Shown here piece by piece: positions 26,456-39,122 of a DNA stretch of 64,000 nucleotides. Location of the stretch: NCBI GenBank assembly GCA_964572985.1, contig CAZNIC010000006.1, positions 5,044-69,043 of the forward strand. Reading direction: 5' to 3'. This stretch comes from an uncultured Oscillospiraceae bacterium (GTDB lineage: Bacteria; Bacillota; Clostridia; UMGS1883). Numbering within the stretch: the stretch's first letter is position 1; each line of letters opens with the position of its first letter. The translations under genes and the position numbers were made by a program. The notes below the pieces were generated by a model that saw only the letters and a program-made list of their open reading frames with translations, was not told the DNA's origin and did not search any database.

Positions 26456-28846
26456 ATGAAAAAAATCCTTATCAATTTGTTTTTGGTATTATGTTGCTTG
26501 TTGTCTTTTGCAATTGTTTCGGAAGCTTCGGATATAGAAATTGTTTCTCCATCAGAAGACGAAATAATGCCGGGGCGCGATTTCTATGTTGTTGGCACAA
26601 TTAACAGAGGGAATACAAGCGCAAAAAATAATCCATTAAACATAAAAGTAGAATTAATCGATCCTAAGGGCAATGTTGTGAGAACAATCGGCAGTAATGT
26701 TTCGCCTGACGGATTAACATCAGCAAGCTATTTTCTTGTTGATTATGAAGATGGTACTGCAATAAATGATAATAAGGGCGCGCTTACAAATTCTTTCACA
26801 CCACCCGATATTGTATATAACGGTTCTGACCGTGACAGCATCCGCGATGCACATAGTAAAATTGTCGTAAAAGAAAACTATTTTGCAGCAATTATTTATG
26901 GAGGCGCAACAAAACAGCTCGACCTTAAATACGAAGATGAACACGGTAATGGTTTAAAGGATATCGAAGATGGCAGCTATACGCTCAGAGTATCTGCAGT
27001 AAATTTTGACGGAGAAACAGTTTGCACAACCGAAAAGATTATAAAATTCGCAAATAATAAAGAACGTTTTATTGCAAACAATCTTCCGAAAGGTTTTGCT
27101 GAAGAAAACGACCTCATATTACCACTCTCTGCGGTAGGGCATTGGCAACCCGAAAGGTATTTGTCCGAAAAAACCAATGATTATCAGTACTTTACAAACG
27201 CACGTTTTATAGCAAATTCCGATCATGAATATTCAAATGCTGAAAATGTTGGTGTTTTACTTAACTATCTTTACTCAGATGACGTTACTTTTACGACAAA
27301 ACTCGGCAGTGTATTTAATGACGAAGCCGTTGGTGATATTAGCTACTATTATTATGACATTGGTGAAAAATCAGTTGCATTTGAGCTTTTGGGTGCAAAA
27401 CACGTGAGAGAGGGCGTCATTGAAAAAGCCGAGGAAAAACAATTTGTGAAGATTCTCAGAGCGGAACACACCAATACCGAAACAGGGGCAATTTATCCCG
27501 ATTTTGATATGGCTGATGGTGTTATACTTTCGGAAACAACAAAGCCTGTATTCTATGGCGTGTTCACACCGGTTAAGCCCAAAGCGTCGGCAAACAACGG
27601 TATGTATGTATTAAACAACAGTGTGTCCAAGATTAAAGCTGTTGTTTCGGACGCCGATGGTAATGTTGTATATGAGACAGATATCACTCCCGGACTTGCA
27701 AGAACACAAAACTCCGTTTCAAGATATGAATTTTCATTTACGCTTCCTGTAAACTTTAAAAATCTTGGATACGAAAAGTTGCTTTTAAAGGTATTTGCTT
27801 GTGACTTGGATGGCAATATACTCATGGAGTGCGATGGTATAACACTAAAAGTTGCACCTAAGGGAATGTTTATTGCAGGTTATAATGATACGTATTGGGG
27901 CAAAACATTTTGCGATACGGTAAACATGTTTGGCCCGACGCCTTCCGGTGATGCGTTGATTCCGGACAATTATATATCCCGCGGTGATTTTGCTGCAATG
28001 GTAAACAATCTTTTTGGTCTGGCATTTGATGGTGATAACAGCTTCACAGACCTTGATAAGAAAAGTGTTTTTTACCAAGACTGCATAACGGCACAGGGGA
28101 TAGGTTACATGACAGGCGATGAGCACGGAATGATAAAAGCAGATGATCTTATCAGTCGCGAACAAGCCATGATTATACTTGCGCGTATTTCTAATGCCGA
28201 AATGGGTAACAAGGAAGTAACATTCTTTGACAAAAACGAAATTTCCTTCTGGGCAGAAGATTATGTCAATATTATGGTTTCAAACGGCATTGTTACCGGA
28301 TTTGATGGTTACCTTCATCCCACGGATAATATTACCTGCGCAGAAGCTTCTGCACTTATTATAAAAACTATTAAATGGTTAAATACTAACAGTGAAGAAA
28401 CAATTGAGGAAGAAGTAACTATCATTATCCCCCAAACAGATTTTGGCTCATCAGATTACATCGACAATGTAAACATTGAGAATCTTCAGCTGTTTTTTGC
28501 TGAAAACGAAGCATCCTTTGAAGCTATTGCAAATTACATTGTTCGCAGTTGTAAAAATGGCGTTTATGTGGGCAAAGTAGGTGCAGGCTTGGAAATGCGT
28601 GATTATGCTATGGGTAACTTTGTTTCTTTCTCAGACGATGCCTTAAAGCTTGTTACAACGCTTTCTTCTAAATTTGCCGTATTTTCAATCAAATATAATC
28701 CCAAGAACGAGCAAGCCATACATTTTGTTCTCGGCAAAGATGAAAACAATAAGGATATAGGACTTACATATACATTACTTGATACCGTAAACGGAAAAAC
28801 ATTAACTTCTTTGGATAAAAACTGGTATTACTTTAATCAAAACTAA
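26456..28846 (+). CDS. Large secreted cell-surface protein with C-terminal SLH-like repeats
   Basis: Signal peptide 'LCCLLSFAIVSEA'. Two SLH-like segments ('ISRGDFAAMVNNLFG...LISREQAMIILARI' and 'FWAEDYVNIMVSNGIVTGF...ITCAEASALIIK'). Confidence 0.55.
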   Translation: MKKILINLFLVLCCLLSFAIVSEASDIEIVSPSEDEIMPGRDFYVVGTINRGNTSAKNNPLNIKVELIDPKGNVVRTIGSNVSPDGLTSASYFLVDYEDGTAINDNKGALTNSFTPPDIVYNGSDRDSIRDAHSKIVVKENYFAAIIYGGATKQLDLKYEDEHGNGLKDIEDGSYTLRVSAVNFDGETVCTTEKIIKFANNKERFIANNLPKGFAEENDLILPLSAVGHWQPERYLSEKTNDYQYFTNARFIANSDHEYSNAENVGVLLNYLYSDDVTFTTKLGSVFNDEAVGDISYYYYDIGEKSVAFELLGAKHVREGVIEKAEEKQFVKILRAEHTNTETGAIYPDFDMADGVILSETTKPVFYGVFTPVKPKASANNGMYVLNNSVSKIKAVVSDADGNVVYETDITPGLARTQNSVSRYEFSFTLPVNFKNLGYEKLLLKVFACDLDGNILMECDGITLKVAPKGMFIAGYNDTYWGKTFCDTVNMFGPTPSGDALIPDNYISRGDFAAMVNNLFGLAFDGDNSFTDLDKKSVFYQDCITAQGIGYMTGDEHGMIKADDLISREQAMIILARISNAEMGNKEVTFFDKNEISFWAEDYVNIMVSNGIVTGFDGYLHPTDNITCAEASALIIKTIKWLNTNSEETIEEEVTIIIPQTDFGSSDYIDNVNIENLQLFFAENEASFEAIANYIVRSCKNGVYVGKVGAGLEMRDYAMGNFVSFSDDALKLVTTLSSKFAVFSIKYNPKNEQAIHFVLGKDENNKDIGLTYTLLDTVNGKTLTSLDKNWYYFNQN

Positions 28847-28858
28847 GGAAATGATATA

Positions 28859-29653
28859 TTGCGTAAGTTTTTTTCAATCATCCGTTATTTTTTCATGAAA
28901 CTTAATACAGATAAAATAACACTTTACAGCGCATACTCATCATATTATACGGTAATTTCTTTTATTCCGTTTTTAATATTGATACTTATGCTCTCGGGTG
29001 AATTGTTTAATATTACAAAAGGGGATATTGTCATCTACGCAGGTGACAGTATCCCCAAAAATATTTATAATTTAATTTTTTATCTGGTTGAAGATATAAT
29101 GAAACAAAACTCTGTTTCTATGTTATCCTTTCCGATAGTTACATTGCTTTGGTCATCCTCAAGGGCGATTATGGCATTAACAAAAGGACTTGACTGTATA
29201 TTTGATGTAAAAACAAACCACGGATTGATAAAGCGCAATATTATCAGTCTGTATCGTACGTTGTTTTTAATAACAACAGTTGTTTTTTTTCTGACGATAT
29301 CAGTATTGGGGAATTTCGCCTCAATTGATAAGATTAAATATGTGCGTCCTGTTGTTTCTGTCATTGTTTTGACATTCTTCTTTGCGGGTGCCTATGCGTT
29401 TTTTCCAACCAAAAAACAAAACTATAAAAAGCAGCTTCCGGGCGCATTGTTTGCCGCTTTGTGTTGGATGTTTTTTTCCTTTTTCTTTTCGGTATACGTT
29501 GATAATTATTCCAACAAATCATATGTTTATGGTGGTTTATCTACGCTAATCGTACTAATGCTATGGATTTATTTTTGTACTGGTATAATTTTTATTGGTG
29601 CTGAAATTAACGCTATGCTATTTCCAAATAATGAAAACATTGACACCAAATAA
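28859..29653 (+). CDS. YihY/BrkB-family membrane protein
   Basis: Polytopic membrane protein with YihY-like 'YSAYSSYYTVISFIPFLIL' N-terminal region. TTG start. Confidence 0.7.
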   Translation: MRKFFSIIRYFFMKLNTDKITLYSAYSSYYTVISFIPFLILILMLSGELFNITKGDIVIYAGDSIPKNIYNLIFYLVEDIMKQNSVSMLSFPIVTLLWSSSRAIMALTKGLDCIFDVKTNHGLIKRNIISLYRTLFLITTVVFFLTISVLGNFASIDKIKYVRPVVSVIVLTFFFAGAYAFFPTKKQNYKKQLPGALFAALCWMFFSFFFSVYVDNYSNKSYVYGGLSTLIVLMLWIYFCTGIIFIGAEINAMLFPNNENIDTK

Positions 29654-29684
29654 TCTTCGTGATACTATATAATAAATTAAATAT

Positions 29685-29960
29685 AAAAAGATGTAGGTGG
29701 CGTATTGCTTTTGCAGATACGCATAATAGGGAATCGGGTGCAAATCCCGAACAGACCTGCTGCCGTGATAGGGGAGTTGACCTCACAATGCCACTGAAAC
29801 AATCGGGAAGGCGAGGAAAACGGTGATTCTTGAGTCGGAAGACCTGCCATATCTTTGTACAAATACTTCACAGGTAATTGAAGGGTACACTGTTTGACAA
29901 ATGTTTTTATACACATTTGTTTGTTTTGTGTGCTCACCGTGAAGGTGAGTTTTTTGTTTT
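29685..29960 (+). promoter_or_regulatory. Cobalamin (AdoCbl) riboswitch, copy 1, with an intrinsic-terminator expression platform
   Basis: Conserved core 'AATAGGGAATCGGGTGCAAATCCCGAACAGACC', 'GCCACTG', 'GGGAAGGCG' and B12-box 'AGTCGGAAGACCTGCC' (29833-29848). A terminator hairpin 'CTCACCGTGAAGGTGAGTTTTTTGTTTT' (29934-29960) lies just before RBS AAGGAGG. Confidence 0.9.
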
Positions 29961-29973
29961 CAAGGAGGTTTTT

Positions 29974-30408
29974 ATGAAAAGATTATTTGCTTTACTTATT
30001 ACCATTGTAATGTGCTTTTGCTTGTGTAGCTGTGGCGCCGCCAAAACAGTTGCCGTAAAAGTGGAAATTGATTGCTCCGAAATCATCAAAAATTATGATG
30101 ATCTTTCACCTGAATTAAAAAATGAAAAATATGTTCCTTCAAACGGCATTATCCTCAAGGAAACTACCATAGAGGTAAAAGAAGGAGCTTCTGCGGTTGA
30201 TATTTTGAAAGCTGTTTCTAAGGAATATAACATTCCGATTGATGTGTCGGCAGGTTATGCAAAAAGTATTAATCATATTTCTGAAAAATCCTGCGGCGAA
30301 ATGTCGGGTTGGGTTTACGAAATAAATAACGAAATGTTCATGGATGAATACAAGGCTAAAGACGGTGACCTTATCACTTGGAAATTTGTTTGCAGCTTTG
30401 ATTATTAA
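29974..30408 (+). CDS. DUF4430 (transcobalamin beta-domain-like) lipoprotein; putative cobalamin-binding protein
   Basis: Lipobox 'LCSCG'. DUF4430-type motifs 'SNGIIL', 'SAVDILK', 'GYAKSINHISEKSCGEMSGWVYEINNEMFMDEYKAKDGDLITWKF'. It sits directly downstream of cobalamin riboswitch 1. Confidence 0.75.
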   Translation: MKRLFALLITIVMCFCLCSCGAAKTVAVKVEIDCSEIIKNYDDLSPELKNEKYVPSNGIILKETTIEVKEGASAVDILKAVSKEYNIPIDVSAGYAKSINHISEKSCGEMSGWVYEINNEMFMDEYKAKDGDLITWKFVCSFDY

Positions 30409-30432
30409 TTTTTAATTTAGAATTTAATATAT

Positions 30433-30700
30433 AAAGAAGTAGGTGGCGTATTGCTTTTTGGCAGATACGCATAATAGGGAATCGGGTGAAAATCCCGAAC
30501 AGACCTGCTGCCGTGATAGGGGAGTTGACCTCAAAAATGCCACTGGGTAACCGGGAAGGCGAGGAATACGGTGATCCTTGAGTCGGAAGACCTGCCACTT
30601 CTTTGTACCAAATACTTCACAGGATTTTGAAGGGTACGTTAATTAGGGCATTTTATGAAATGCCTTCTTTGAGTATGCTTTTATTCCTGTAAAAATGCAA
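30433..30700 (+). promoter_or_regulatory. Cobalamin (AdoCbl) riboswitch, copy 2 (~90% identical to copy 1)
   Basis: The same conserved blocks as copy 1, including B12-box 'AGTCGGAAGACCTGCC' (30581-30596). The expression platform diverges, ending in a short 'GGGCATTTTATGAAATGCC' hairpin before RBS AAGGAGG. Confidence 0.9.
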
Positions 30701-30713
30701 GGAGGCGCAAGCT

Positions 30714-32873
30714 ATGAAAGCAAGCTCAAAGATTTTTTTGGTTTTAGCACTAATGTTGACACTTTTAACCGTTGTTACGGTTCAGGCAGGTGAATATATC
30801 ACCACAGCCGAAACCCCCGATGAAACAACCCTAAAATGGGCAACACAGATTGGTGAAGGCTGGCAAAAAAGTGCAGGTGCCCCGATTTTTGTTAATGACA
30901 GTATTGTCATTATTTCCGGGGACGAATTATTGAAGGTTAATCCCAAAAACGGGGAAATAATTCTTCGTGCACAAATGAGCGAAGCACAAAGCTATGGTTA
31001 TGTGGCACCAACATTTGCAGAGGGTAAAATCTTTATGAATTTATCAAACGGTACCGTTGAAGCGTTTGATGCAGATACCTTTGAGTCCGAATGGGTTTAT
31101 ACCGACACATTAAAAGGCAAAGGCATGACACAGGTTACATATTCCGAAAACACGGTTTTTACCGGCTTTTGGAACGGCGAAACAAAGGATGCTAACTTTG
31201 TTGCCCTTGACAGTACAACGGGTCAGTTAAAATGGTCAATGACAATTAACGGTGGTTTCTATTGGGCTGGTGCGTGCTTTACAGAGGATGCTGTTATTTT
31301 TGCAACCGATGACGGCAGCGATAAAATTGCTCATATTTATTCCTGTAATAAGCAAACAGGCGAAATTATAAGTCAAATCGATGTCAGTGACAAGGGCGAC
31401 ATCCGTTCTGCGGCAACATTTTACAACGGCAGAATATACGCTACTACAAAAGGTGGCTACATTATCTCTGCATCGTTAAATAATAACGTATTTTCTGATG
31501 TTAAGTATGGTGAAATCGGTGCGGCGTCCACATCCACTCCTGTTATTTACAAAGACAGGATTTATATCGGTGTAGGAGATAAGACAATTTCTGTGCTTGA
31601 CAGTAATACTCTTGATAAGCTGTTTGCGGTAAATGTTTCAGCATACCCACAGTGTACACCCCTTATTTCAACTTATTACGAAGATGCAGAAGGGTATCTT
31701 TACCTTTATACTACGTACAACAAAACACCCGGAGGCGTAACGCTTGTAAAAATTAAAATCGATGCTGAAAGCAGCGAAGACTGTATTGTAACAGAAATTT
31801 ACGATGCCGAAGGGTATTCTCAGTATTGTATTTCCGACATTATATGCGACGAAAACGGAACTTTGTACTACAAAAATGATTCGGGATATCTTTTTGCGCT
31901 CACAGGCAAAACAACTATTTATGCTTCCATGACAGAAGACGGATTTCTTTTGCCTCAGCGCGATATGTCTGTATCAAAAAACACAGCCGAAAAATATGGT
32001 TATACCGACACTGTGACCGACGGTACATCTGCGCTTGATGTTTTGGTTAAAATCCATGAAGATATGTTTGGCGAGGATTTTACACCGGATACTGCAAATG
32101 ATTACCTTCTGGTTTCAAGTGAGGGGTATTTGTCTCGTGTTGTGTGCATTGATACATATAACTTCGGTTTTGCGGTTAACGGATATGCGCCCCATGACGA
32201 TGTTTTAACCGAATGGGGCTATACGGGATATTCAATTAATCAAGCAAAAGTTTCAAATGGTGCCGTTGTGGAGTTTTTCATTTATCGTGACAGTTGGGCA
32301 ATGGATAATTATGTTCATTTTGAATTGAACGGCTCAAAAATATCGTCTTTAAAAGCTCGTACTGACGAAAACATTACACTTACTCTCAAAGGATATTCTA
32401 TTGGCTGGTACGGCTGCTCGGAAGAGTCACAGCTTGAAAGCATTATAACACCTATCCAAAATGCCGACATAACTTTGGTTGATAGCCTTACAGGCGAAAC
32501 AGAAAAAGTCACCACTACCGATGAAAATGGTAGTTTTAGCTTAAGCTTTGCATGCCCCGGTAAATACATTTTGTCTGCAACAGAAGGGGAGAGCGCAACC
32601 CCCATAATTGCACCTTGGTTTGAAGTTGATGTTAAGGGCATAGCAGTTAGCTTTAATGAGGATAAAACCACTGCAACAATCACATCAAATCTTGACGTGG
32701 CAACCTCTTGTTGGATTATAATTGCTGAATATAGCCAAGATATTGTAACCCGTGTTACAGTACAAGAATCAAATCTTCCCAAAGATTTCTCCACTAATAC
32801 TATCGATATATCAGCCTTTAGCGGTGATATCCGAATTTATGTATGGAATCAAGATTTAGAACCTGTGCGCTAA
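30714..32873 (+). CDS. Secreted PQQ-type beta-propeller protein with C-terminal beta-sandwich domains; BtuG-like candidate surface B12-binding protein
   Basis: Signal peptide (VQA/GEY). Multiple ~40-aa WD/PQQ-like blades over residues ~40-400 with 'G.I..W' repeats. C-terminal Ig/CarboxypepD_reg-like segment 'TTDENGSFSLSFACPGKY'. First gene after riboswitch 2. Confidence 0.6.
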   Translation: MKASSKIFLVLALMLTLLTVVTVQAGEYITTAETPDETTLKWATQIGEGWQKSAGAPIFVNDSIVIISGDELLKVNPKNGEIILRAQMSEAQSYGYVAPTFAEGKIFMNLSNGTVEAFDADTFESEWVYTDTLKGKGMTQVTYSENTVFTGFWNGETKDANFVALDSTTGQLKWSMTINGGFYWAGACFTEDAVIFATDDGSDKIAHIYSCNKQTGEIISQIDVSDKGDIRSAATFYNGRIYATTKGGYIISASLNNNVFSDVKYGEIGAASTSTPVIYKDRIYIGVGDKTISVLDSNTLDKLFAVNVSAYPQCTPLISTYYEDAEGYLYLYTTYNKTPGGVTLVKIKIDAESSEDCIVTEIYDAEGYSQYCISDIICDENGTLYYKNDSGYLFALTGKTTIYASMTEDGFLLPQRDMSVSKNTAEKYGYTDTVTDGTSALDVLVKIHEDMFGEDFTPDTANDYLLVSSEGYLSRVVCIDTYNFGFAVNGYAPHDDVLTEWGYTGYSINQAKVSNGAVVEFFIYRDSWAMDNYVHFELNGSKISSLKARTDENITLTLKGYSIGWYGCSEESQLESIITPIQNADITLVDSLTGETEKVTTTDENGSFSLSFACPGKYILSATEGESATPIIAPWFEVDVKGIAVSFNEDKTTATITSNLDVATSCWIIIAEYSQDIVTRVTVQESNLPKDFSTNTIDISAFSGDIRIYVWNQDLEPVR

Positions 32874-32886
32874 GGGAGGAAGAAGT

Positions 32887-33429
32887 ATGAATTTACTCAC
32901 AACTGTAATTTCTATAATTACACTTCTTTCTATGCACTTGCCTTCAATCGATGTTAGTTATATCAATGATGCAGATGAATACATAGAAGAAAGTGTATAT
33001 TGTTCTGTTGATGCAAGCTCGGTTTCAATAGGAGATGTTATACCAACAGAAGAAATCTCTTTTAATGGCGAAAACTGTGCCGAAATTTTTGTTAATTTGC
33101 TTGAAAGTAATGGTTTTGAGGCAATATATTCCGGTAGTACCAAGGAAGATTTTTATCTTTCTGCCGTAAGCGGTATCGATACTTCGAATGCCTTTGTTTC
33201 GGAGGAATTTGCGGACTTTTTAACTGCACACGGCATTGATTATGAAAATGCTGTATGGGAAGAAAACGTCCTTAGTGAATTTGATTTTACCGAATCATCA
33301 GGCTGGATTTATACCGTAAACGGCGAAATTCCCGATGTGGGAATGAATAGCTACATACCCAATCCCGGAGACGAAATTAAACTTATTTTTACTCTCTGTT
33401 ACGGAGAAGATATTTATTTATTGAACTGA
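32887..33429 (+). CDS. DUF4430 (transcobalamin beta-domain-like) protein with N-terminal signal/anchor
   Basis: 'GWIYTVNGEIPDVGMNSYIPNPGDEIKLIFT', a DUF4430 C-terminal motif. RBS GGAGGAAG. Confidence 0.7.
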   Translation: MNLLTTVISIITLLSMHLPSIDVSYINDADEYIEESVYCSVDASSVSIGDVIPTEEISFNGENCAEIFVNLLESNGFEAIYSGSTKEDFYLSAVSGIDTSNAFVSEEFADFLTAHGIDYENAVWEENVLSEFDFTESSGWIYTVNGEIPDVGMNSYIPNPGDEIKLIFTLCYGEDIYLLN

Positions 33430-33430
33430 T

Positions 33431-34540
33431 ATGAAAAGATTTGTATTGTTTCTACTTATTATTTTATTAATATCAAACACTGTGCATTGTTCTGACATAG
33501 CAAACGAGGCATACAGCACCCCGGGCACCTCTAACGGTGACTGGAGTGCTATTGCTCTTATGTTGTCGGATGAAGACTTTGACAAAGAACGTTATATCAC
33601 AGCCCTCGGTCAATATGTTACAGAAAAGTACGAATATTCCGACAAATTAAGTCGAACAAAGTCAACTGAATGGCATAGGATTGCTATAGCAGTAAATCTT
33701 GCAGGAGAGGATGCAACTGATTTTTGTGGCATTAATCTTATAAACGACGGTGTTTTTTACCGAGAAAATCTTGGCAGGCAAGGGCTTAACGGCTATGTGT
33801 GGGCGCTTATAGCCCTTTGTTCGAGCGATTTTGATGAGCCATACGATGCAGTCAACACAAAAAACAGCATTTTAAACGAAATATTGCTTCGTCAAAACAG
33901 TGACGGTGGGTTTTCTGTTTCGGGCAACACCTCCAATTGCGATATGACAGCCATGACTTTATATGCACTTTCGTTTTTTCAAGACAGGGAAGAGATAAGT
34001 GCTCGGATTGACAATGCCCTTAATTATTTATCAAATATACAAAACGTCGACGGAAGTTTTTCGGAGGGCGGAGTGCCGAATGCCGAAAGTACAGCTCAGG
34101 TAATTATTGCACTTTCAGCACTTGGTAAAAACAAAACCGATGATAAAATGCTAAATGACGCTTACAATGGGTTAATGCTTTTTAAAACAGCTGACGGATT
34201 TTCCCATGTTAGCCCGGGGGAAACAAATACCATTGCAACATATCAAGGAACGTGTGCTGTTGTTGCGGCAGAAAAGCCGAGAGCAATATATAAAAAGATT
34301 AATGATTTCAAAAACGCAACACATTTTGTTGAATTACCAACAGCCTCGGATGAAGAAGAAATTACCCAAACAGAAACTGTATTAACCACCACAGTCAGCG
34401 ATTTATCAACCAAAACCGAAACTGAAACAGCAGCTCTTCAACAGGTATCAGATGATAACAATGGCAGTTTATTTATAATAATATTTTCATTTATCGCTGT
34501 TTGTGGTATAATTACCTTATGTATATGGAGAAAAAAATGA
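33431..34540 (+). CDS. Secreted, C-terminally membrane-anchored alpha/alpha-toroid protein (prenyltransferase / squalene-hopene-cyclase-like repeats)
   Basis: Signal peptide. At least 4 repeats of the 'G(G/Y)(F/W)....(A/T)...(L/I)(A/S)L' type: 'LNGYVWALIALC', 'SDGGFSVSG..CDMTAMTLYALSFF', 'VDGSFSEGG..STAQVIIALSALG', 'ADGFSHVS'. C-terminal TM 'LFIIIFSFIAVCGIITLCIW' followed by RKK. Confidence 0.65.
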   Translation: MKRFVLFLLIILLISNTVHCSDIANEAYSTPGTSNGDWSAIALMLSDEDFDKERYITALGQYVTEKYEYSDKLSRTKSTEWHRIAIAVNLAGEDATDFCGINLINDGVFYRENLGRQGLNGYVWALIALCSSDFDEPYDAVNTKNSILNEILLRQNSDGGFSVSGNTSNCDMTAMTLYALSFFQDREEISARIDNALNYLSNIQNVDGSFSEGGVPNAESTAQVIIALSALGKNKTDDKMLNDAYNGLMLFKTADGFSHVSPGETNTIATYQGTCAVVAAEKPRAIYKKINDFKNATHFVELPTASDEEEITQTETVLTTTVSDLSTKTETETAALQQVSDDNNGSLFIIIFSFIAVCGIITLCIWRKK

Positions 34541-35058
34541 ATTTTAAGAAGAAATCTATCTTTTTGGCAGTTTGTGCTATTTTAATTATTGCGGTTTTTT
34601 TGATATCTAATATACAAAGTACGGAAAATTACGAAAAAAATATATCTGAAAATGGTGATTTTACCGTAACAATATCTATTGATTGTAAAACCATTTTAAA
34701 TGAATATGAAAAGCTTGATAATTCTCTCAAAAACACACAATATGTTCCCGAAAACGGTATTATCCTGAATAAAACAACGGTTTGGGCAAATAAAGGCGAT
34801 ACGGTACTGGATATTTTAAAAAAAGCCACAAAAGAGAATAATATTCAGCTTGAATACTCCCAGTCTCCCAATGACTCATATGTTGAGGGCATAAACCATA
34901 TTTATGAATTTTCTTGCGGTGAGCTTTCAGGGTGGATGTATAAAGTAAACGGTAATTTTGCAAATACCGGCTGTAATTCATATTTTGTTTCGGAAAATGA
35001 CCATATTCAATGGATTTATACTTGTAATCTCGGCGAAGATATAGGAGAAAAATTCTGA
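34537..35058 (+). CDS. DUF4430 (transcobalamin beta-domain-like) protein, N-terminally membrane-anchored; paralog of the 29974 gene
   Basis: ATGA overlap with the upstream stop. TM 'IFLAVCAILIIAVFLI'. 'ENGIILNKTTVWANKGDTVLDILKK' and 'CGELSGWMYKVNG' parallel the first DUF4430 protein. Confidence 0.7.
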   Translation: MNFKKKSIFLAVCAILIIAVFLISNIQSTENYEKNISENGDFTVTISIDCKTILNEYEKLDNSLKNTQYVPENGIILNKTTVWANKGDTVLDILKKATKENNIQLEYSQSPNDSYVEGINHIYEFSCGELSGWMYKVNGNFANTGCNSYFVSENDHIQWIYTCNLGEDIGEKF

Positions 35059-35912
35059 TGCGTTTTTATGATTTTCATCCTCTTACTTTAATTGTATATT
35101 TTGCATCGGTCATTGCATTTACAATGATAACTATGAACCCATTTTTGTTATTATTGTCTTTTTTTGGTGCATTTTTATCGGTAAAAATTATCACAAAGAA
35201 AAGCAGTTTTACTTCATATATTATTATTTTTGCTGCAATATGTCTCACAAATCCGATATTTTCGCACAACGGCGAAACAGTTTTGTTTTATATATTTGAC
35301 CAACGCGTGACGCTTGAAGCGTTAATTTACGGTGTTGGCGCCGGTCTGCTTATTTTATCGGTATTATATTGGTTTAATCTGTTTAGCTATGTTTTCACTG
35401 AGGACAAGCTTGTTTGGCTGGTAGGCAAAATTTCGCCCAAGCTTTGCGTTGTATTTTGTATGGCTTTAAGGTTTATTCCGCTTTTTAAAGAAAACGCAGC
35501 AAATATCTATAACGCACAGCTTTCAATGGGTATTTTTGAAACCAATACATTTAAAGGAAAACTCAAGCTTATAACAAATGTTTTTTCTGCCTTGATTTCA
35601 ATTTCTGTTGAAAACGCTATCGAAACTGCAGACACCATGTCGTCACGTGGTTTTGGCGGCAAAAAGCGTTCTTCATATTCACTAGTTTGCATGTCAAAAC
35701 GAGATGTTTTATTTATTTTTGTTAGTTTGTTACTGGATTTATTGGTGATAATCAATCTTTTAAGTGGGGAAGGCGTGTTTTACTATTACCCCGCACTTTA
35801 TTTTGAAGGTTTTTCGATTTTGTATGTAGTTTTTGCAGTGCTTTGTCATTTGCCTGTTTTAAATGAGCTTACGGAGGAAATAAAATGGAAATACTTGATA
35901 TCAAAAATCTGA
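35058..35912 (+). CDS. ecfT: ECF transporter transmembrane (T) component, EcfT/CbiQ family
   Basis: Polytopic, with EcfT-like coupling-helix region 'ENAIETADTMSSRGFGGKKR' (A-R-G/S motif). TGATG overlap. Confidence 0.75.
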   Translation: MRFYDFHPLTLIVYFASVIAFTMITMNPFLLLLSFFGAFLSVKIITKKSSFTSYIIIFAAICLTNPIFSHNGETVLFYIFDQRVTLEALIYGVGAGLLILSVLYWFNLFSYVFTEDKLVWLVGKISPKLCVVFCMALRFIPLFKENAANIYNAQLSMGIFETNTFKGKLKLITNVFSALISISVENAIETADTMSSRGFGGKKRSSYSLVCMSKRDVLFIFVSLLLDLLVIINLLSGEGVFYYYPALYFEGFSILYVVFAVLCHLPVLNELTEEIKWKYLISKI

Positions 35913-37429
35913 CTTTCAGATATCCTCAATCAAATACAAATGCTCTTTTAGATGTTTCGTTTTCTGTAAACGAAGGTGATTTTGTTCTTTTGTGTGGCGG
36001 CTCAGGCAGTGGTAAAACAACACTTTTGAGACTTTTGAAAGAAGAAATTGCGCCTTTTGGCGAAAAGAGCGGCACTATAAACATAAAAAAAGGTGCAAAT
36101 ATCGGAATTGTTACTCAAGATACCGAAAACCAGATTATATCAGATACCGTATGGCATAACTTGGCGTTTGCGCTTGAAAACATGAACAGACCCGACTGTG
36201 AAATACGTCAAAAAATATCGGAAATTACGGAATATTTTGATATAACACATTTGTTTTATAAAAACACTTTTGAGCTTTCAGGCGGCGAAAAACAGCTTGT
36301 AAATTTAGCGTCTGTTATGGTGACAGACCCCGATATTCTGCTTTTGGACGAACCTACAAGCCAGCTTGACCCCATTGCGGCAAGCCGATTTATGGATATA
36401 GTAAAAAAGCTTAATACCGAAATGAATCTTACGATTATAATTGTTGAGCATCGGGCAGAGGAGCTTTGGAATCACGCAGATAAGGTTGTTTTAATGGAAC
36501 AAGGAAAAAGTCAAATTATGCAAATATGCGATATCAAATCAGGAAAACTGCATGATTATACTGTTGAAAAACCTTATGCAATACAGCTTTTTGAACGCCT
36601 TAATATAAAATCTGATTATCCTTTGACTGTAGGCGGTTGCCGCAGGTTTTTATCGGATAATTTTAAATCCGAAGTCAATGCAATTGAAGAAACAGAATAC
36701 GAAAAAAACACGGCATTAGAATTAAAGGATGTTTATTTCAGATATACAAAAAATTCTGCAGATGTATTAAAAAAGCTCAATTTTAGTGCAGATTTTGGCA
36801 AAATACTTACTCTTTTAGGCGGAAACGGCAGTGGTAAAACAACGCTTTTATCACTAATATCGGGCATAAGAAAGCCCTACAGCGGAAAAATAAAAACATT
36901 CAATCATAAGATTGCAGTTTTGCCTCAAAACGTAAAAACAGTTTTTACAAAAGATGTTTTAAAAGAAGATTTTGCCCTAATTACGGATGATTTTTATGAT
37001 GTCTGCCAAAAGCTCGATATAGAACATCTTTTAGACAGAAACCCCTTTGATTTAAGTGGAGGAGAGGCTCAACGTGCAGCTTTGGCAAAGGTCCTGCTTG
37101 TAAAGCCCGACATTCTTTGTCTGGACGAGCCTACAAAGGGAATAGATGCAAAAGGGAAGAGGCTTATACAAAAAATCCTTAAAATGTTGGCATCAAGTGG
37201 TGTTTGTGTAATAATTGTAAGCCACGATGCTGATTTTTCGGCAGAGATTTCAGATAAATGTGCATTTTTATTTAACGGACAAATTGTATCGGAAGGAAGT
37301 CCGCGAATGGTTTTTTCAAAAAACAAATTTTATACAACATATGCGTCACGCATTTCAAGACATATGTATAAAAATGCAGTTACAATTGATGACGTAGTTA
37401 ATTTGTGCAAAAGGAATGGTCACTATTAA
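35885..37429 (+). CDS. ecfA: ECF transporter ATPase, fused EcfA-EcfA' (two ABC domains)
   Basis: Two Walker A motifs ('GGSGSGKTT', 'GGNGSGKTT'), two signatures ('LSGGEKQ', 'LSGGEAQ'), two Walker B motifs ('LLLDEPTS', 'LCLDEPTKG'). Confidence 0.85.
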   Translation: MEILDIKNLTFRYPQSNTNALLDVSFSVNEGDFVLLCGGSGSGKTTLLRLLKEEIAPFGEKSGTINIKKGANIGIVTQDTENQIISDTVWHNLAFALENMNRPDCEIRQKISEITEYFDITHLFYKNTFELSGGEKQLVNLASVMVTDPDILLLDEPTSQLDPIAASRFMDIVKKLNTEMNLTIIIVEHRAEELWNHADKVVLMEQGKSQIMQICDIKSGKLHDYTVEKPYAIQLFERLNIKSDYPLTVGGCRRFLSDNFKSEVNAIEETEYEKNTALELKDVYFRYTKNSADVLKKLNFSADFGKILTLLGGNGSGKTTLLSLISGIRKPYSGKIKTFNHKIAVLPQNVKTVFTKDVLKEDFALITDDFYDVCQKLDIEHLLDRNPFDLSGGEAQRAALAKVLLVKPDILCLDEPTKGIDAKGKRLIQKILKMLASSGVCVIIVSHDADFSAEISDKCAFLFNGQIVSEGSPRMVFSKNKFYTTYASRISRHMYKNAVTIDDVVNLCKRNGHY

Positions 37430-38108
37430 ACATAGTATTTTTAGTATTTTATCAATAATATTTTTATTAACGTTGGCAATTTTGAGCAATGTTTTTCTTG
37501 GAAATGAAAAGTATATGCTGGTTGCAACCATTGGTGCTTTAATAAGTATAATTCCGTTTTTTACAGCTTTTGAAAATAAGAGACACACAACGCGGGAAGC
37601 CGTTATAATCGCTGTAATGGTAGCACTTTGTGTTTCAGGACGTCTAATTTTTACTATAGTACCGCATTTTAAACCTGTTACAGCACTTGTAATCATAACA
37701 GGCATATATTTTGGTTCCGATGCCGGCTTTATAACAGGCTCTCTTACAGCATTGGTGTCCAATATGCAGCACGGACAGGGTCCATGGACGGTGTTTCAAA
37801 TGTCGGTTTGGGGATTAATCGGTTTTTTTGCGGGATTTTTAAACAAAAAACGACTTTTGCAAAACAGGTTTTCGCTGATGGTTTTTTCGGGTATTTGTGG
37901 GGTTATATATTCTTTAATAATGGATATATATACAACAATAAGCATAGATAGTGTATTTTCATTCGAAAGATATTTGTTTTACGTGGCAACGTCTGTACCT
38001 ATAATGCTTGAATACATAATTTCAAACATTGTTTTTATCTGTGTTTTACAAAAACCTATTGGAAACAAACTTTTGAGAATAAAAACAAAATATGGTTTAT
38101 TTAACTAA
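37416..38108 (+). CDS. ECF transporter substrate-specific (S) component, putative cobalamin-specific (CbrT-like)
   Basis: A 230-aa, ~6-TM protein overlapping the ecfA end and last in the riboswitch-controlled operon. Specificity is inferred from context only. Confidence 0.55.
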   Translation: MVTIKHSIFSILSIIFLLTLAILSNVFLGNEKYMLVATIGALISIIPFFTAFENKRHTTREAVIIAVMVALCVSGRLIFTIVPHFKPVTALVIITGIYFGSDAGFITGSLTALVSNMQHGQGPWTVFQMSVWGLIGFFAGFLNKKRLLQNRFSLMVFSGICGVIYSLIMDIYTTISIDSVFSFERYLFYVATSVPIMLEYIISNIVFICVLQKPIGNKLLRIKTKYGLFN

Positions 38109-38138: not shown

Positions 38139-39122
38139 TTATTCATTATTTTTAAGCTTTTTAGTATTTGCAAGAGGATTACGGTTAACTGCATCATGCA
38201 ACTGTTTTTCGTCAACATGTGTATAAATCTGTGTTGTAGAAAGCTGTTCGTGCCCTAAAATTTCTTGTAATGCTCTCACGTCAACATCTCCGTGAACATA
38301 CATAAGCGTTGCTGCGGTATGTCTGAGCTTGTGCGGGGAGTACTTTTCGGGATCAAGCCCGGCTCTTTCCATATTCTTTTTTACCATTTTATATACCATA
38401 TTATTGGAAATACGAGTTTTTCTTTTGCTCAAAAACAGCGCATCACGATCAATAACACCATCATGAGGTCGGACCTTCAGATAGTCATTTATTGCCGAAA
38501 CACAGGCATCATTTAAATAAACTTTACGTTCTTTGTTGCCTTTGCCTCGTATAAATATGCTTTTTTCTTGCATATCGTGCATATTTATGCCGACAAGTTC
38601 GCTAAGACGCATACCACAGTTCAAAAACAGCGTAATTATGGCATAATCGCGTACTGCAAATTCGCCGTCAACGGCTTCAAGCAGCTTTAAAGATTGTTCG
38701 AGCGTAAGATATCTTGGTAATTTTTTTGGAATTTTAGGAGATTCCAAATCTTTAGCAATATTATCATCAAGCTGATGTGATTTAACAGTCATGTAATTAT
38801 AGAAAGATTTTAAACAGGAAATTTTGCGAGCCAAAGCATTAGGATTGTTGTCACGTGAATTTCTGATATACATAAGAAATTCGTACAAATCATCAGTATT
38901 AAGTTTTTTTAATTCATTTAAAGAAAAATCAGAACAATCAATTGTATCAAATTCATCAAAGGAGGCTTTGTTAAAATAACACAACATAAATCTAAAAAAA
39001 GTTCTGAGGTCATAATAATATTCATGAACAGTTTTATCAGATTTTCCAAGAATGGTAGACATATGGACAAGAAAACGCCGTGCAAAGCCCGGAATATCGT
39101 GGTATTCATTATGTACATTCAT
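38139..39122 (-). CDS. Tyrosine site-specific recombinase, XerC/XerD family, with an extended N-terminal domain
   Basis: C-terminal catalytic motifs 'HKLRHTAAT' and 'LGHEQLSTTQIYTH' (R-H-R-Y tyrosine). The N-terminal region is ~40 aa longer than canonical XerD. Confidence 0.8.
   Translation of the reverse strand: MNVHNEYHDIPGFARRFLVHMSTILGKSDKTVHEYYYDLRTFFRFMLCYFNKASFDEFDTIDCSDFSLNELKKLNTDDLYEFLMYIRNSRDNNPNALARKISCLKSFYNYMTVKSHQLDDNIAKDLESPKIPKKLPRYLTLEQSLKLLEAVDGEFAVRDYAIITLFLNCGMRLSELVGINMHDMQEKSIFIRGKGNKERKVYLNDACVSAINDYLKVRPHDGVIDRDALFLSKRKTRISNNMVYKMVKKNMERAGLDPEKYSPHKLRHTAATLMYVHGDVDVRALQEILGHEQLSTTQIYTHVDEKQLHDAVNRNPLANTKKLKNNE

Follow-up and report, generated by a model that had tools for sequence, protein, structure and literature searches.

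Gut communities are shaped by competition for vitamin B12 and other cobamides, and the extracellular capture of B12 is understood in Bacteroides only, where BtuG is a seven-bladed propeller (PMC13616437). For low-GC Gram-positives, Burroughs et al. (2007) predicted that extracellular transcobalamin-like proteins scavenge B12 for CbiO/CbiQ transporters, and noted a beta-propeller fusion that was taken as a tether (PMC1796856); the general idea of extracellular SLBB B12 scavenging, being known from that paper, is thus not new. The propeller itself was never before analysed as a family, and a 2026 review described what extracellular binders do in Gram-positive Firmicutes as wholly uncharacterised (PMC13616437). 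In the literature, no paper combining cobalamin riboswitch, propeller, ECF and Clostridia was found, and DUF4430 was met only incidentally. As for the membrane step, the structure 6FNP represents ECF-CbrT of Lactobacillus delbrueckii (PMC5997447). The locus compared here with these systems lies in a stretch of 64,000 nucleotides (the window), and its elements are as follows.

29640..29668, + strand: sigma-70-like promoter, TTGACA-17-TACTAT with extended TG (consensus scan, 10/12 matches; a pattern match only)
29677..29865, + strand: cobalamin riboswitch 1, RF00174 aptamer (Rfam 108.4 bits, gathering score 31.5; full-length model match)
29932..29960, + strand: terminator-like hairpin and T-run (scan; 7-bp stem, then TTTTTTGTTTT)
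29974..30408, + strand: DUF4430 (transcobalamin-beta-like SLBB) protein a (Pfam PF14478, E 6.5e-10)
30423..30613, + strand: cobalamin riboswitch 2, RF00174 aptamer (Rfam 113 bits)
30714..32873, + strand: propeller protein ORF, 719 aa (ORF list; ATG start; first gene past riboswitch 2)
32887..33429, + strand: DUF4430 protein b, 180 aa, N-terminal hydrophobic segment (Pfam PF14478, E 3.2e-10)
33431..34540, + strand: alpha/alpha-toroid protein with prenyltransferase/squalene-cyclase-type repeats (Pfam PF00432, 29.6 bits)
34537..35058, + strand: DUF4430 protein c, 173 aa, N-terminal TM anchor (Pfam PF14478, E 6.2e-20; gene called identically on the public contig)
35058..35912, + strand: ECF transporter T component, CbiQ family (Pfam PF02361, E 1.3e-9)
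35885..37429, + strand: fused ECF A-A' ATPase, two ABC domains (NCBIfam ECF_ATPase_1 and ECF_ATPase_2, E 1e-86 to 1e-89, two stretches)
37416..38108, + strand: ECF S component, CbrT (vitamin B12) type (phmmer against PDB: 6FNP chain A, E 4.9e-8)

The promoter adjoins riboswitch 1 on its 5' side, and the hairpin at 29932..29960 is probably the expression platform of this riboswitch. DUF4430 protein a, read from an ATG at 29974 with the ribosome-binding site AAGGAGG, is probably a lipoprotein, judging from its …LCSC… motif. Riboswitch 2 begins 14 nt past the stop codon of that gene, and a weak hairpin (~30636-30660) and a second AAGGAGG lie between it and the ATG at 30714. The propeller gene belongs to one transcription unit with the genes of three DUF4430 proteins tethered to the membrane, of the membrane-anchored toroid, and of the CbrT-like S, the T and the A-A' components, and is expressed only when the cobalamin riboswitch is unliganded, i.e. 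is repressed by B12. The S component aligns by phmmer over residues 55-227 with residues 5-177 of 6FNP chain A, and with a CbrT-homologous S, an ECF T and an ECF A component present, the operon has the composition of an ECF-CbrT importer. Neither PQQ biosynthesis genes nor redox partner genes were found in the operon with Pfam. The toroid protein, which carries a C-terminal TM anchor, is of the fold class of the transcobalamin alpha-domain (PMC1796856). When its 12-sequence profile was compared with the PDB, squalene-hopene cyclases (5.8e-19) and prenyltransferases were matched and the transcobalamin alpha-domain was not found; thus, the link between toroid and transcobalamin is one of fold class, taken from the literature.

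The product of the propeller gene is identical to a 719-aa product recorded in NCBI and Logan (P0001), and its AF2 model (pLDDT 91.1) showed, in this order, a signal peptide, an eight-bladed propeller, an SLBB-like domain joined rigidly behind the propeller, and two beta-sandwich domains.

30714..30788, + strand: signal peptide, residues 1-25, cut after VQA (direct reading; low-pLDDT helix over 1-25 in AF2)
30801..31913, + strand: BamB/YxaL-like (PQQ_2) beta-propeller, eight blades, residues ~30-400
31899..32348, + strand: divergent transcobalamin-beta-like SLBB (DUF4430-like) domain, residues 396-545 (hhalign and Foldseek)
32349..32609, + strand: beta-sandwich domain 1, transthyretin/CarboxypepD_reg-like, residues 546-632 (Pfam PF13620 below cut-off; all-beta in the AF2 model)
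32610..32870, + strand: beta-sandwich domain 2, residues 633-719 (AF2 secondary structure; no Pfam match)

The N-terminus (MKASSKIFLVLALMLTLLTVVTVQA, then GE after the cut) has a basic n-region, a 17-residue hydrophobic core and the VQA cleavage motif of a Sec signal peptide; no lipobox Cys is present in it, and no LPXTG, SLH, TM segment or other recognisable wall anchor was seen in the protein. The protein is secreted, as an earlier sequence-only reading had claimed, and the ORF is the first past riboswitch 2, as that reading also stated. Its proposal of an approximately seven-bladed propeller at residues ~40-400 held for the propeller (residues ~30-400) and failed for the blade number, since eight four-stranded blades are seen in the AF2 model. 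The loose DUF4430 resemblance that it had noticed at residues ~430-520 was recovered within residues 396-545 by the comparisons given below. Its C-terminal CarboxypepD_reg/Ig-like fold agrees with a sub-threshold match to CarboxypepD_reg (PF13620) at residues 579-624 (26.8-28.3 bits; cut-off 32.3) and with the two all-beta domains of the model; residues 546-719 are two Ig-like spacer domains. These features of ORF 30714..32873 are not due to chance.

The SLBB relationship of the middle domain is visible only by profile-profile and fold comparison. Pfam gave no match to residues 396-545 even at E<=10, the DUF4430 model (PF14478) included, and a local DUF4430 HMM scored 2.9 bits, i.e. no relation by plain HMM. 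With hhalign, a suggestive match of the same residues to the DUF4430 domains of related loci was obtained at a probability of 85% (below the usual bar of 90-95%) and E 5e-6, with 96-114 columns in register that cover the GWxYxVNG and dGDxIxw regions. Modelled separately (pLDDT 86), the domain showed the beta-grasp fold of the transcobalamin beta-domain type. Its top Foldseek matches were haptocorrin (4kki), transcobalamin (8ixu, 7qbg, 2bb6 and 2bb5) and the DUF4430 structure 3u7z, followed by the isolated transcobalamin beta-domain (5no0 and 5np4) and intrinsic factor (2pmv). These transcobalamin-type matches (probability 0.9-0.99) rank above generic ubiquitin-like folds, and are modest in absolute terms (E about 2e-3, TM about 0.5). 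His448 and Asp531 are near-invariant in the domain. The context described by Burroughs et al., a secreted protein encoded alongside CbiQ/CbiO-type transporter genes (PMC1796856), is found here as well.

As for the propeller, PF13360 (PQQ_2) scored above its gathering score, and this match together with the eight-bladed fold places the domain in the BamB/YxaL-type fold family. The best fold matches were themselves eight-bladed (YxaL, BamB and the designer proteins Tako8, Ika8 and Bagel8), and the closest folds were of the non-cofactor BamB/YxaL type, quinoprotein dehydrogenases scoring clearly lower. A BamB functional orthologue was rejected, because the scores against the NCBIfam BamB equivalogs were far under the cut-offs (TIGR03300, 45.9 versus 285.2; NF008351, 35.9 versus 423) and there is no outer-membrane or BAM context. 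In the propeller family, residues conserved at >=90% are concentrated in the D-A and B-C loops (39/116, versus 8/63 in the A-B and C-D loops; Fisher p 0.002), which were placed on one face (the 'top') by the general propeller rule and not from coordinates. Some of the conservation in the B-C loops, it should be noted, comes from the 'xDG' turn, a structural element of PQQ-type repeats. The approximately 39 near-invariant residues of the face loops are largely aromatic and polar and are kept across architectures only 35-45% identical; Cys372 is invariant, and several acidic residues lie on the conserved face. The conserved residues of this face include W153, Y183, W184, R231, Q313, N336, N388 and D389.

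The family comprises 663 clusters (50% identity) at E<=1e-30 and 460 species-level genome loci. Neighbourhoods were counted in 80 genome loci with propeller relatives, and domain fusions in 83 propeller ORFs. A same-strand cobalamin riboswitch was found upstream in 56 of the 80 loci, with none detected in 15 and nine not judgeable, and 62 of 63 riboswitch-model matches were on the strand of the propeller gene. The riboswitch model (R1) was built from six sequences, five of them close, and is less sensitive than Rfam, so that the count of 56 is a lower bound; the model missed the riboswitch of locus L036, and real sites scored down to 15 bits. DUF4430/SLBB (transcobalamin-like) domains were present in 76 of the 80 loci, and ECF genes were frequent (A in 69, T in 68, S in 61). 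An SLBB domain occurs in the same polypeptide as the propeller in 56 of the 83 ORFs and is absent in cis in 27; many homologues have hundreds of residues between their SLBB domains and the propeller. A composite site made of propeller and SLBB domain is therefore not universal. Homologues bear SLH, choline-binding and cadherin-like modules, i.e. modules of surface display. At one locus (L017), a propeller-SLBB gene amid unrelated housekeeping genes is immediately preceded by a riboswitch of its own (Rfam 94 bits), with no transporter found nearby. The family is thus tied to B12 and is linked through riboswitches to ECF-CbrT in Clostridia, cultivable species included; among the cultivable carriers are Eubacterium barkeri VPI 5359, Proteiniclasticum ruminis ML2 and Hominisplanchenecus faecis. 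The synteny of propeller, DUF4430 and ECF behind RF00174 that the sequence-only reading had anticipated was borne out among the 80 loci, and the riboswitch, DUF4430/SLBB and ECF counts, with the stand-alone locus L017, bear out its preference for a direct role in B12 handling over PQQ chemistry.

From these data, the operon very probably imports corrinoids, and the 719-aa protein is likely to take part in their extracellular capture. The fuller assignment that we favour, with somewhat less assurance, makes the protein an extracellular accessory to a corrinoid importer of ECF-CbrT type that is repressed by B12; as such, the protein most likely helps a gut Clostridium to take up B12 by extracellular capture. 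Under B12 limitation, the protein would be deployed at or beyond the wall, where it would capture free or carrier-bound corrinoid. The SLBB-like domain may well contact the corrinoid and would bind it in the manner of the transcobalamin beta-domain. Contact by the propeller face is a more tentative suggestion; the conserved face might complete the binding site or serve in docking or hand-off. The ligand would then move inward via the small tethered DUF4430 and toroid proteins to CbrT for ATP-driven import, with the membrane-anchored toroid as the putative other half of a transcobalamin-type sandwich. Such a Gram-positive relay would be analogous in logic to BtuG/H/J/K of Bacteroides and to the Isd haem relay.

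How far the propeller itself takes part is the point on which the other readings diverge. It is possible, though doubtful, that the propeller face alone provides a very high-affinity corrinoid site, BtuG-like by convergence, with the SLBB-like domain secondary. Near-invariant, largely aromatic and polar residues in the loops of a single face would suit a small-molecule site better than a protein interface, the SLBB domain is missing in cis in 27 of 83 family members, and two unrelated seven-bladed propellers, BtuG and BtuK1, use Ser/Asn/Gln/Glu/Tyr contacts to bind B12 on a face (PMC13616437). However, the propeller has neither homology nor a closest-fold relation to BtuG or BtuK, its nearest structural relatives (BamB, YxaL and Rv3035) are protein-interaction scaffolds, and the SLBB domains of the 76 loci could do all the binding; the protein's own transcobalamin-like domain could likewise explain B12 binding without the propeller. 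With similar reserve we hold the wider proposal that a BamB-type eight-bladed propeller independently became a corrinoid-binding or transfer surface and, with transcobalamin-like domains, forms a wall-spanning B12 relay feeding ECF-CbrT in a large fraction of gut and rumen Clostridia.

Slightly less probable is a propeller that binds no corrinoid and acts as scaffold or tether only, organising the DUF4430 and toroid proteins or host carrier proteins, or fixing the complex to polysaccharide of the wall. Interaction platforms are a classic use of the BamB/YxaL fold and tethering was put forward before (PMC1796856), but the propeller is kept in homologues that have dedicated anchors (SLH, choline-binding repeats), so that it is more than an anchor, and a tether would not usually keep one face near-invariant while architectures and partners differ widely.

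An extracellular catalyst, e.g. for corrinoid release or remodelling, or a PQQ-dependent quinoprotein, is very unlikely. Weak Pfam PQQ and quinoprotein matches, tetrathionate hydrolase among the fold matches, and Cys372 with the acidic residues of the conserved face would fit an enzyme. The PF01011 score (18.4 bits) is, however, under the cut-off of 26.7, so that the domain does not qualify as a PQQ dehydrogenase propeller; the quinoprotein matches span only about 80 residues; PQQ dehydrogenases have roughly 200 extra residues that the 370-residue propeller is without; and the operon holds none of the PQQ or redox partner genes. The fold ranking given above also answers the concern, raised with the sequence-only reading, that the propeller might be closest to quinoprotein dehydrogenases. 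Slightly more remote still is haem or another tetrapyrrole as the substrate, as claimed for the L. sakei lsa1836-1840 ECF operon, which is similar in logic (ECF with split alpha and beta transcobalamin-like proteins; 10.1101/864751); the two cobalamin-class riboswitches, the match of the S component to CbrT and the riboswitch linkage across the propeller family stand against it. Finally, a true BtuG homologue transferred between phyla, which would share with BtuG only the general propeller fold and the context of a riboswitch-controlled B12 transport locus, is effectively refuted, since the propeller has eight blades and not seven, phmmer and a 72-sequence profile searched against all PDB chains (E<=1 and E<=10) returned BamB and PQQ dehydrogenases only and no BtuG, the signal peptide is of Sec and not lipoprotein type, and the operon encodes ECF T, A and S components instead of a BtuB partner.

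The kinship with BtuG that had been suggested for this protein was therefore not upheld, BtuG being also absent from the closest folds in the structure search, and 'counterpart' can be meant as functional analogy at most. What is now defined is a family of propeller/transcobalamin-like surface proteins that is large and has sharp limits, and for which the tether prediction of 2007 is revisited. Its size, its riboswitch and ECF-CbrT linkage and its cultivable members open the capture question to direct testing, and the family is a source of candidates for what determines the cobamide selectivity of butyrate-producing and rumen Clostridia. If the wider proposal were true, three unrelated propellers, BtuG, BtuK and now this one, would each have solved B12 capture, and the relay could strip B12 off host or competitor carriers.

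Compared with known systems, the protein resembles BtuG (e.g. BtuG2, PDB 8BMZ) as a secreted, surface-exposed propeller of a cobalamin-riboswitch-controlled B12 transport locus and as a plausible extracellular scavenger ahead of a membrane transporter. BtuG, in contrast, is a lipoprotein capping the TonB-dependent BtuB barrel, whereas the present protein is Sec-secreted from an ECF-CbrT operon of a Gram-positive-type organism and also carries a transcobalamin-like domain. BtuK1, BtuH and BtuJ of Bacteroides are likewise encoded in B12 loci and are modular surface proteins in which a binding domain is combined with Ig/PKD spacers, with several binders per operon, which suggests a relay; their domains (the seven-bladed propeller of BtuK, the own fold of BtuH and DUF4465 of BtuJ) are unrelated to those of this locus, and none was found here. 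BamB and YxaL, at 15-18% identity, are eight-bladed PQQ_2 propellers without cofactor, and the family motifs GGFYWAG, GDIRS, STSTP, YPQC, TYNxxPGG and YYKNDSG are not features of BamB. In the Rv3035-FecB complex (PDB 9p3f), a BamB-like propeller is paired with a solute-binding protein, and in the Isd haem relay of Gram-positives several binding modules span the wall and feed a membrane transporter; the likeness to both is one of logic only, since their ligands are iron and haem, Isd uses NEAT domains, and the homology seen does not go beyond the generic propeller. With the beta-domains of transcobalamin, haptocorrin and intrinsic factor and with DUF4430/SLBB proteins (3U7Z), residues 396-545 have a beta-grasp variant in common, and the second gene downstream encodes an alpha/alpha-toroid partner; here, however, the domain is fused directly to the propeller and not to a toroid, has diverged too far to be matched by the DUF4430 model of Pfam, and has its own near-invariant His448 and Asp531. 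ECF-CbrT of L. delbrueckii (6FNP) is matched here by a homologous S component (near full length), with T and A present, but CbrT of L. delbrueckii uses an ECF module that is shared and has no extracellular accessory proteins, whereas the operon described here joins a dedicated ECF module to five secreted or tethered accessory proteins.

In the window, two full-length cobalamin aptamers (riboswitch 1 and riboswitch 2) were identified with Rfam on the same strand as the ORF of the 719-aa protein, and the features of the locus were assigned as follows.

Features of the cobalamin locus (window coordinates, strand)
29640-29668, +: promoter-like site 5' of aptamer 1
29677-29865, +: cobalamin aptamer 1 (Rfam, 108 bits)
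29932-29960, +: terminator-like hairpin with T-run, 3' of aptamer 1
30423-30613, +: cobalamin aptamer 2 (Rfam, 113 bits)
30714-32873, +: ORF of 719 aa, first gene behind aptamer 2
32887-33429, +: DUF4430 protein (domain search), second gene
33431-34540, +: alpha/alpha-toroid protein with C-terminal TM helix, third gene
34537-35058, +: third DUF4430 protein, fourth gene
35058-35912, +: ECF T component, fifth gene
35885-37429, +: fused A-A' ATPase, sixth gene
37416-38108, +: ECF S component, seventh gene

A small DUF4430 lipoprotein-like gene (true ATG, 29974) is under aptamer 1, and aptamer 2 begins 14 nt past its stop codon; the 719-aa ORF is the first behind riboswitch 2, as the sequence-only reading had it. 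The S component was aligned over nearly its whole length with chain A of 6FNP (E = 4.9e-8), the solved structure of the vitamin B12 importer ECF-CbrT (PMC5997447). The 719-aa protein is under B12-riboswitch control and co-transcribed with a CbrT-type importer. Taken as a whole, the operon encodes a corrinoid importer repressed by B12 together with five accessory proteins, secreted or tethered, whereas ECF-CbrT was characterised without accessory proteins (PMC5997447).

The two riboswitches are near-duplicates by alignment, in tandem around the small DUF4430 gene. The closest genome loci (L002, L003, and L005) have the same DUF4430 gene 5' of the riboswitch, and no second riboswitch was detected 5' of that gene in these three; the second copy in the window appears to be specific to its lineage. 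In L003 (12687-14357), the toroid and third DUF4430 domain form one 557-aa ORF with the full transcobalamin-like architecture; in the window (33431-35058) they are two genes, with ORFs overlapping at 34501/34537-34540 and a separate TM segment in each protein. Many related operons (L008, L011-L013, L015, L016, L023-L026, and others) have a second T-like gene 3' of S (order T-AA-S-T'), and the window operon has a single T gene. A gene just 5' of the B12 locus, its neighbour by position, encodes a 796-aa secreted protein (26456-28846, +). This protein contains Ig-like segments and an SLH domain (PF00395, E = 3.8e-9), and it indicates an S-layer/SLH-type surface in the source organism. On the other strand, the ORF adjoining the 3' end of the operon (38139-39122, -; C-terminal motifs HKLRHTAAT…LGHEQLSTTQIYTH) looks from its sequence like a tyrosine recombinase of the XerC/XerD type.

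The signal peptide claimed earlier for the 719-aa protein was read directly at its N-terminus; it is of the Sec type and has no lipobox, and no LPXTG, SLH or TM anchor was found in the protein. With Pfam, PQQ_2 was over the threshold and CarboxypepD_reg slightly under it. The structure was modelled with AF2 using 72 homologues (mean pLDDT, 91.1). In the model, counting strands, residues ~38-400 form a propeller, which had been expected, of eight four-stranded blades instead of about seven, blade 8 being closed by the N-terminal strand 38-45; the SLBB-like middle domain (396-545) is followed by two all-beta domains. The top PDB matches with Foldseek were BamB, YxaL, tetrathionate hydrolase, and eight-bladed designer proteins (E about 1e-18), and BtuG and BtuK chains were absent from all Foldseek PDB lists and from sequence and profile searches of all PDB chains. 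Because of the blade count, the BamB/YxaL matches and the absence of BtuG/BtuK, the propeller is modelled as a cofactor-less eight-blade of the BamB/YxaL type. Quinoprotein identity was rejected in its favour, and kinship with BtuG is not supported.

The middle domain gave no match to Pfam at E ≤ 10 and none to a DUF4430 HMM made from the related loci. Its profile, compared with a profile of 121 DUF4430 domains, gave a probability of 85% (E = 5e-6), with the alignment in register through the helix, 'G-W-x-Y-x-V-N-G' and 'dGD-x-I' regions. Modelled on its own (pLDDT, 86), the domain had as best PDB matches haptocorrin, rat, human and bovine transcobalamin, the DUF4430 structure 3U7Z, an isolated transcobalamin beta-domain, and intrinsic factor, and generic beta-grasp proteins ranked below these, which supports the hidden DUF4430-like module suspected earlier. 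His448 (94%) and Asp531 (98%) are near-invariant in this divergent SLBB subtype (n = 51 domains).

A word-indexed search gave 372 relatives in two groups: full-length proteins (713-734 aa, 47-100% identity), and Firmicute surface proteins of 750-1250 aa and larger sharing the propeller only (40-46% identity), with cadherin-like, SLH, choline-binding or LRR modules and, in several, annotated DUF4430 domains. The number of clusters (50% identity) counted exhaustively at E ≤ 1e-30 was 663, and a scan of one genome per species gave 460 loci, 80 of which were retained for analysis. The source genomes are almost all MAGs of Clostridia, and among the carriers in culture are Syntrophaceticus schinkii, Proteiniclasticum ruminis, Eubacterium barkeri, and Hominisplanchenecus faecis. 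Ten loci (L016, L019, L020, L025, L029, L045, L047, L053, L064, and L080) are filed as Bacteroidaceae, Bacteroides, Escherichia coli, Collinsella, Phascolarctobacterium or Hallerella and have the gene content of a Clostridia-type propeller/DUF4430/ECF cluster; these are probably mis-binned MAG contigs, and the taxonomy of the ten records is therefore untrustworthy. Two large propeller proteins stand in tandem in some loci (L061, L027, and L048), in L061 with a riboswitch match between them.

A covariance model built from six riboswitch sequences was run on the 80 loci and the window, giving 63 matches (62 on the same strand as the gene); Rfam confirmed three of the weakest and recovered one missed riboswitch. 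A same-strand riboswitch was located 5' of the propeller ORF in 56 of the 80 loci, within 700 nt in 35 of them; nine loci could not be judged owing to contig ends, and none was detected in 15 with the covariance model and Rfam checks. Of the same 80 loci, 76 contained SLBB domains, 69 the ECF ATPase, 68 T, 61 S, and 10 a toroid; the association of the propeller with riboswitch, SLBB domains and ECF genes extends across the family. Of 83 propeller ORFs, 56 encode at least one SLBB domain in cis, either N- or C-terminal to the propeller. In L017 (9505-12259), a lone 759-aa propeller-SLBB gene stands directly 3' of a cobalamin riboswitch of its own (94 bits with Rfam). It is flanked on one side by a glmS ribozyme, glmS and a gene for an SCFA transporter (ribozyme and glmS 5') and on the other by an oxidoreductase gene, with no ECF or DUF4430 gene within 10 kb. 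Because this gene stands alone behind its riboswitch, B12 control is directed at the propeller protein itself and not simply inherited from a transporter operon, which supports the direct B12 role suggested earlier. Protein cluster P0078 (759 aa, 291 member sequences) has the length of the L017 ORF.

Mean conservation in the 72-sequence alignment was 0.64 for the propeller and 0.22-0.31 for the other domains. The D-A and B-C loops were enriched in positions conserved at ≥90% (39/116) relative to the A-B and C-D loops (8/63; Fisher p = 0.002), with the motifs SYGY, TGFWNGE, GGFYWAG, TDDG, GDIRS, STSTP, YPQC, TYNxxPGG, EQYC, and YYKNDSG. The 'xDG' B-C turns partly reflect the structure of PQQ-type repeats; the motifs in the D-A loops are specific to this family. 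Since D-A and B-C loops make up one ('top') face in propellers generally, the conserved residues would share that face, and its invariance across proteins that differ so much in architecture suggests either a small ligand shared by them all or a partner that does not vary.

We infer extracellular corrinoid capture by the 719-aa protein, after which the corrinoid would be handed to CbrT via the membrane-tethered DUF4430 and toroid proteins, putatively the two halves of a sandwich like that of transcobalamin. For the part that contacts the corrinoid, the conservative choice, and probably the right one, is the SLBB-like domain; His448 as cobalt ligand is pure speculation. Binding of corrinoid by the propeller face itself is conceivable and somewhat doubtful. 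The face may instead be a docking and hand-off surface, a realistic option by analogy because Rv3035, a BamB-like propeller among the structural matches, binds the solute-binding protein FecB. A mere wall tether is unlikely, since homologues already anchored by SLH or choline-binding modules retain the propeller.

The transcobalamin-like SLBB clade was defined by Burroughs et al. (2007) as secreted proteins whose genes accompany those of CbiO/CbiQ in low-GC Gram-positives without B12 synthesis, and for which B12 scavenging was predicted; one Clostridium propeller fusion was recorded, and extra domains of that sort were read as tethers (PMC1796856). Haem uptake was proposed for an ECF operon of L. 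sakei in which the transcobalamin-like subunits are split (10.1101/864751). In Bacteroides, the BtuG/H/J/K relay has been studied in depth; a 2026 review gave Firmicute homologues for BtuH and BtuJ only and called Gram-positive extracellular capture uncharacterised (PMC13616437). Our literature search found no publication on the present propeller family. The 719-aa protein would belong with the transcobalamin-like SLBB proteins and the known accessories through which B12 transporters capture corrinoid outside the cell. That its propeller evolved a B12 site by convergence, as part of a relay in Gram-positives, is the most novel surviving reading and rather unlikely, and the likeness to BtuG would be a functional analogy at most.
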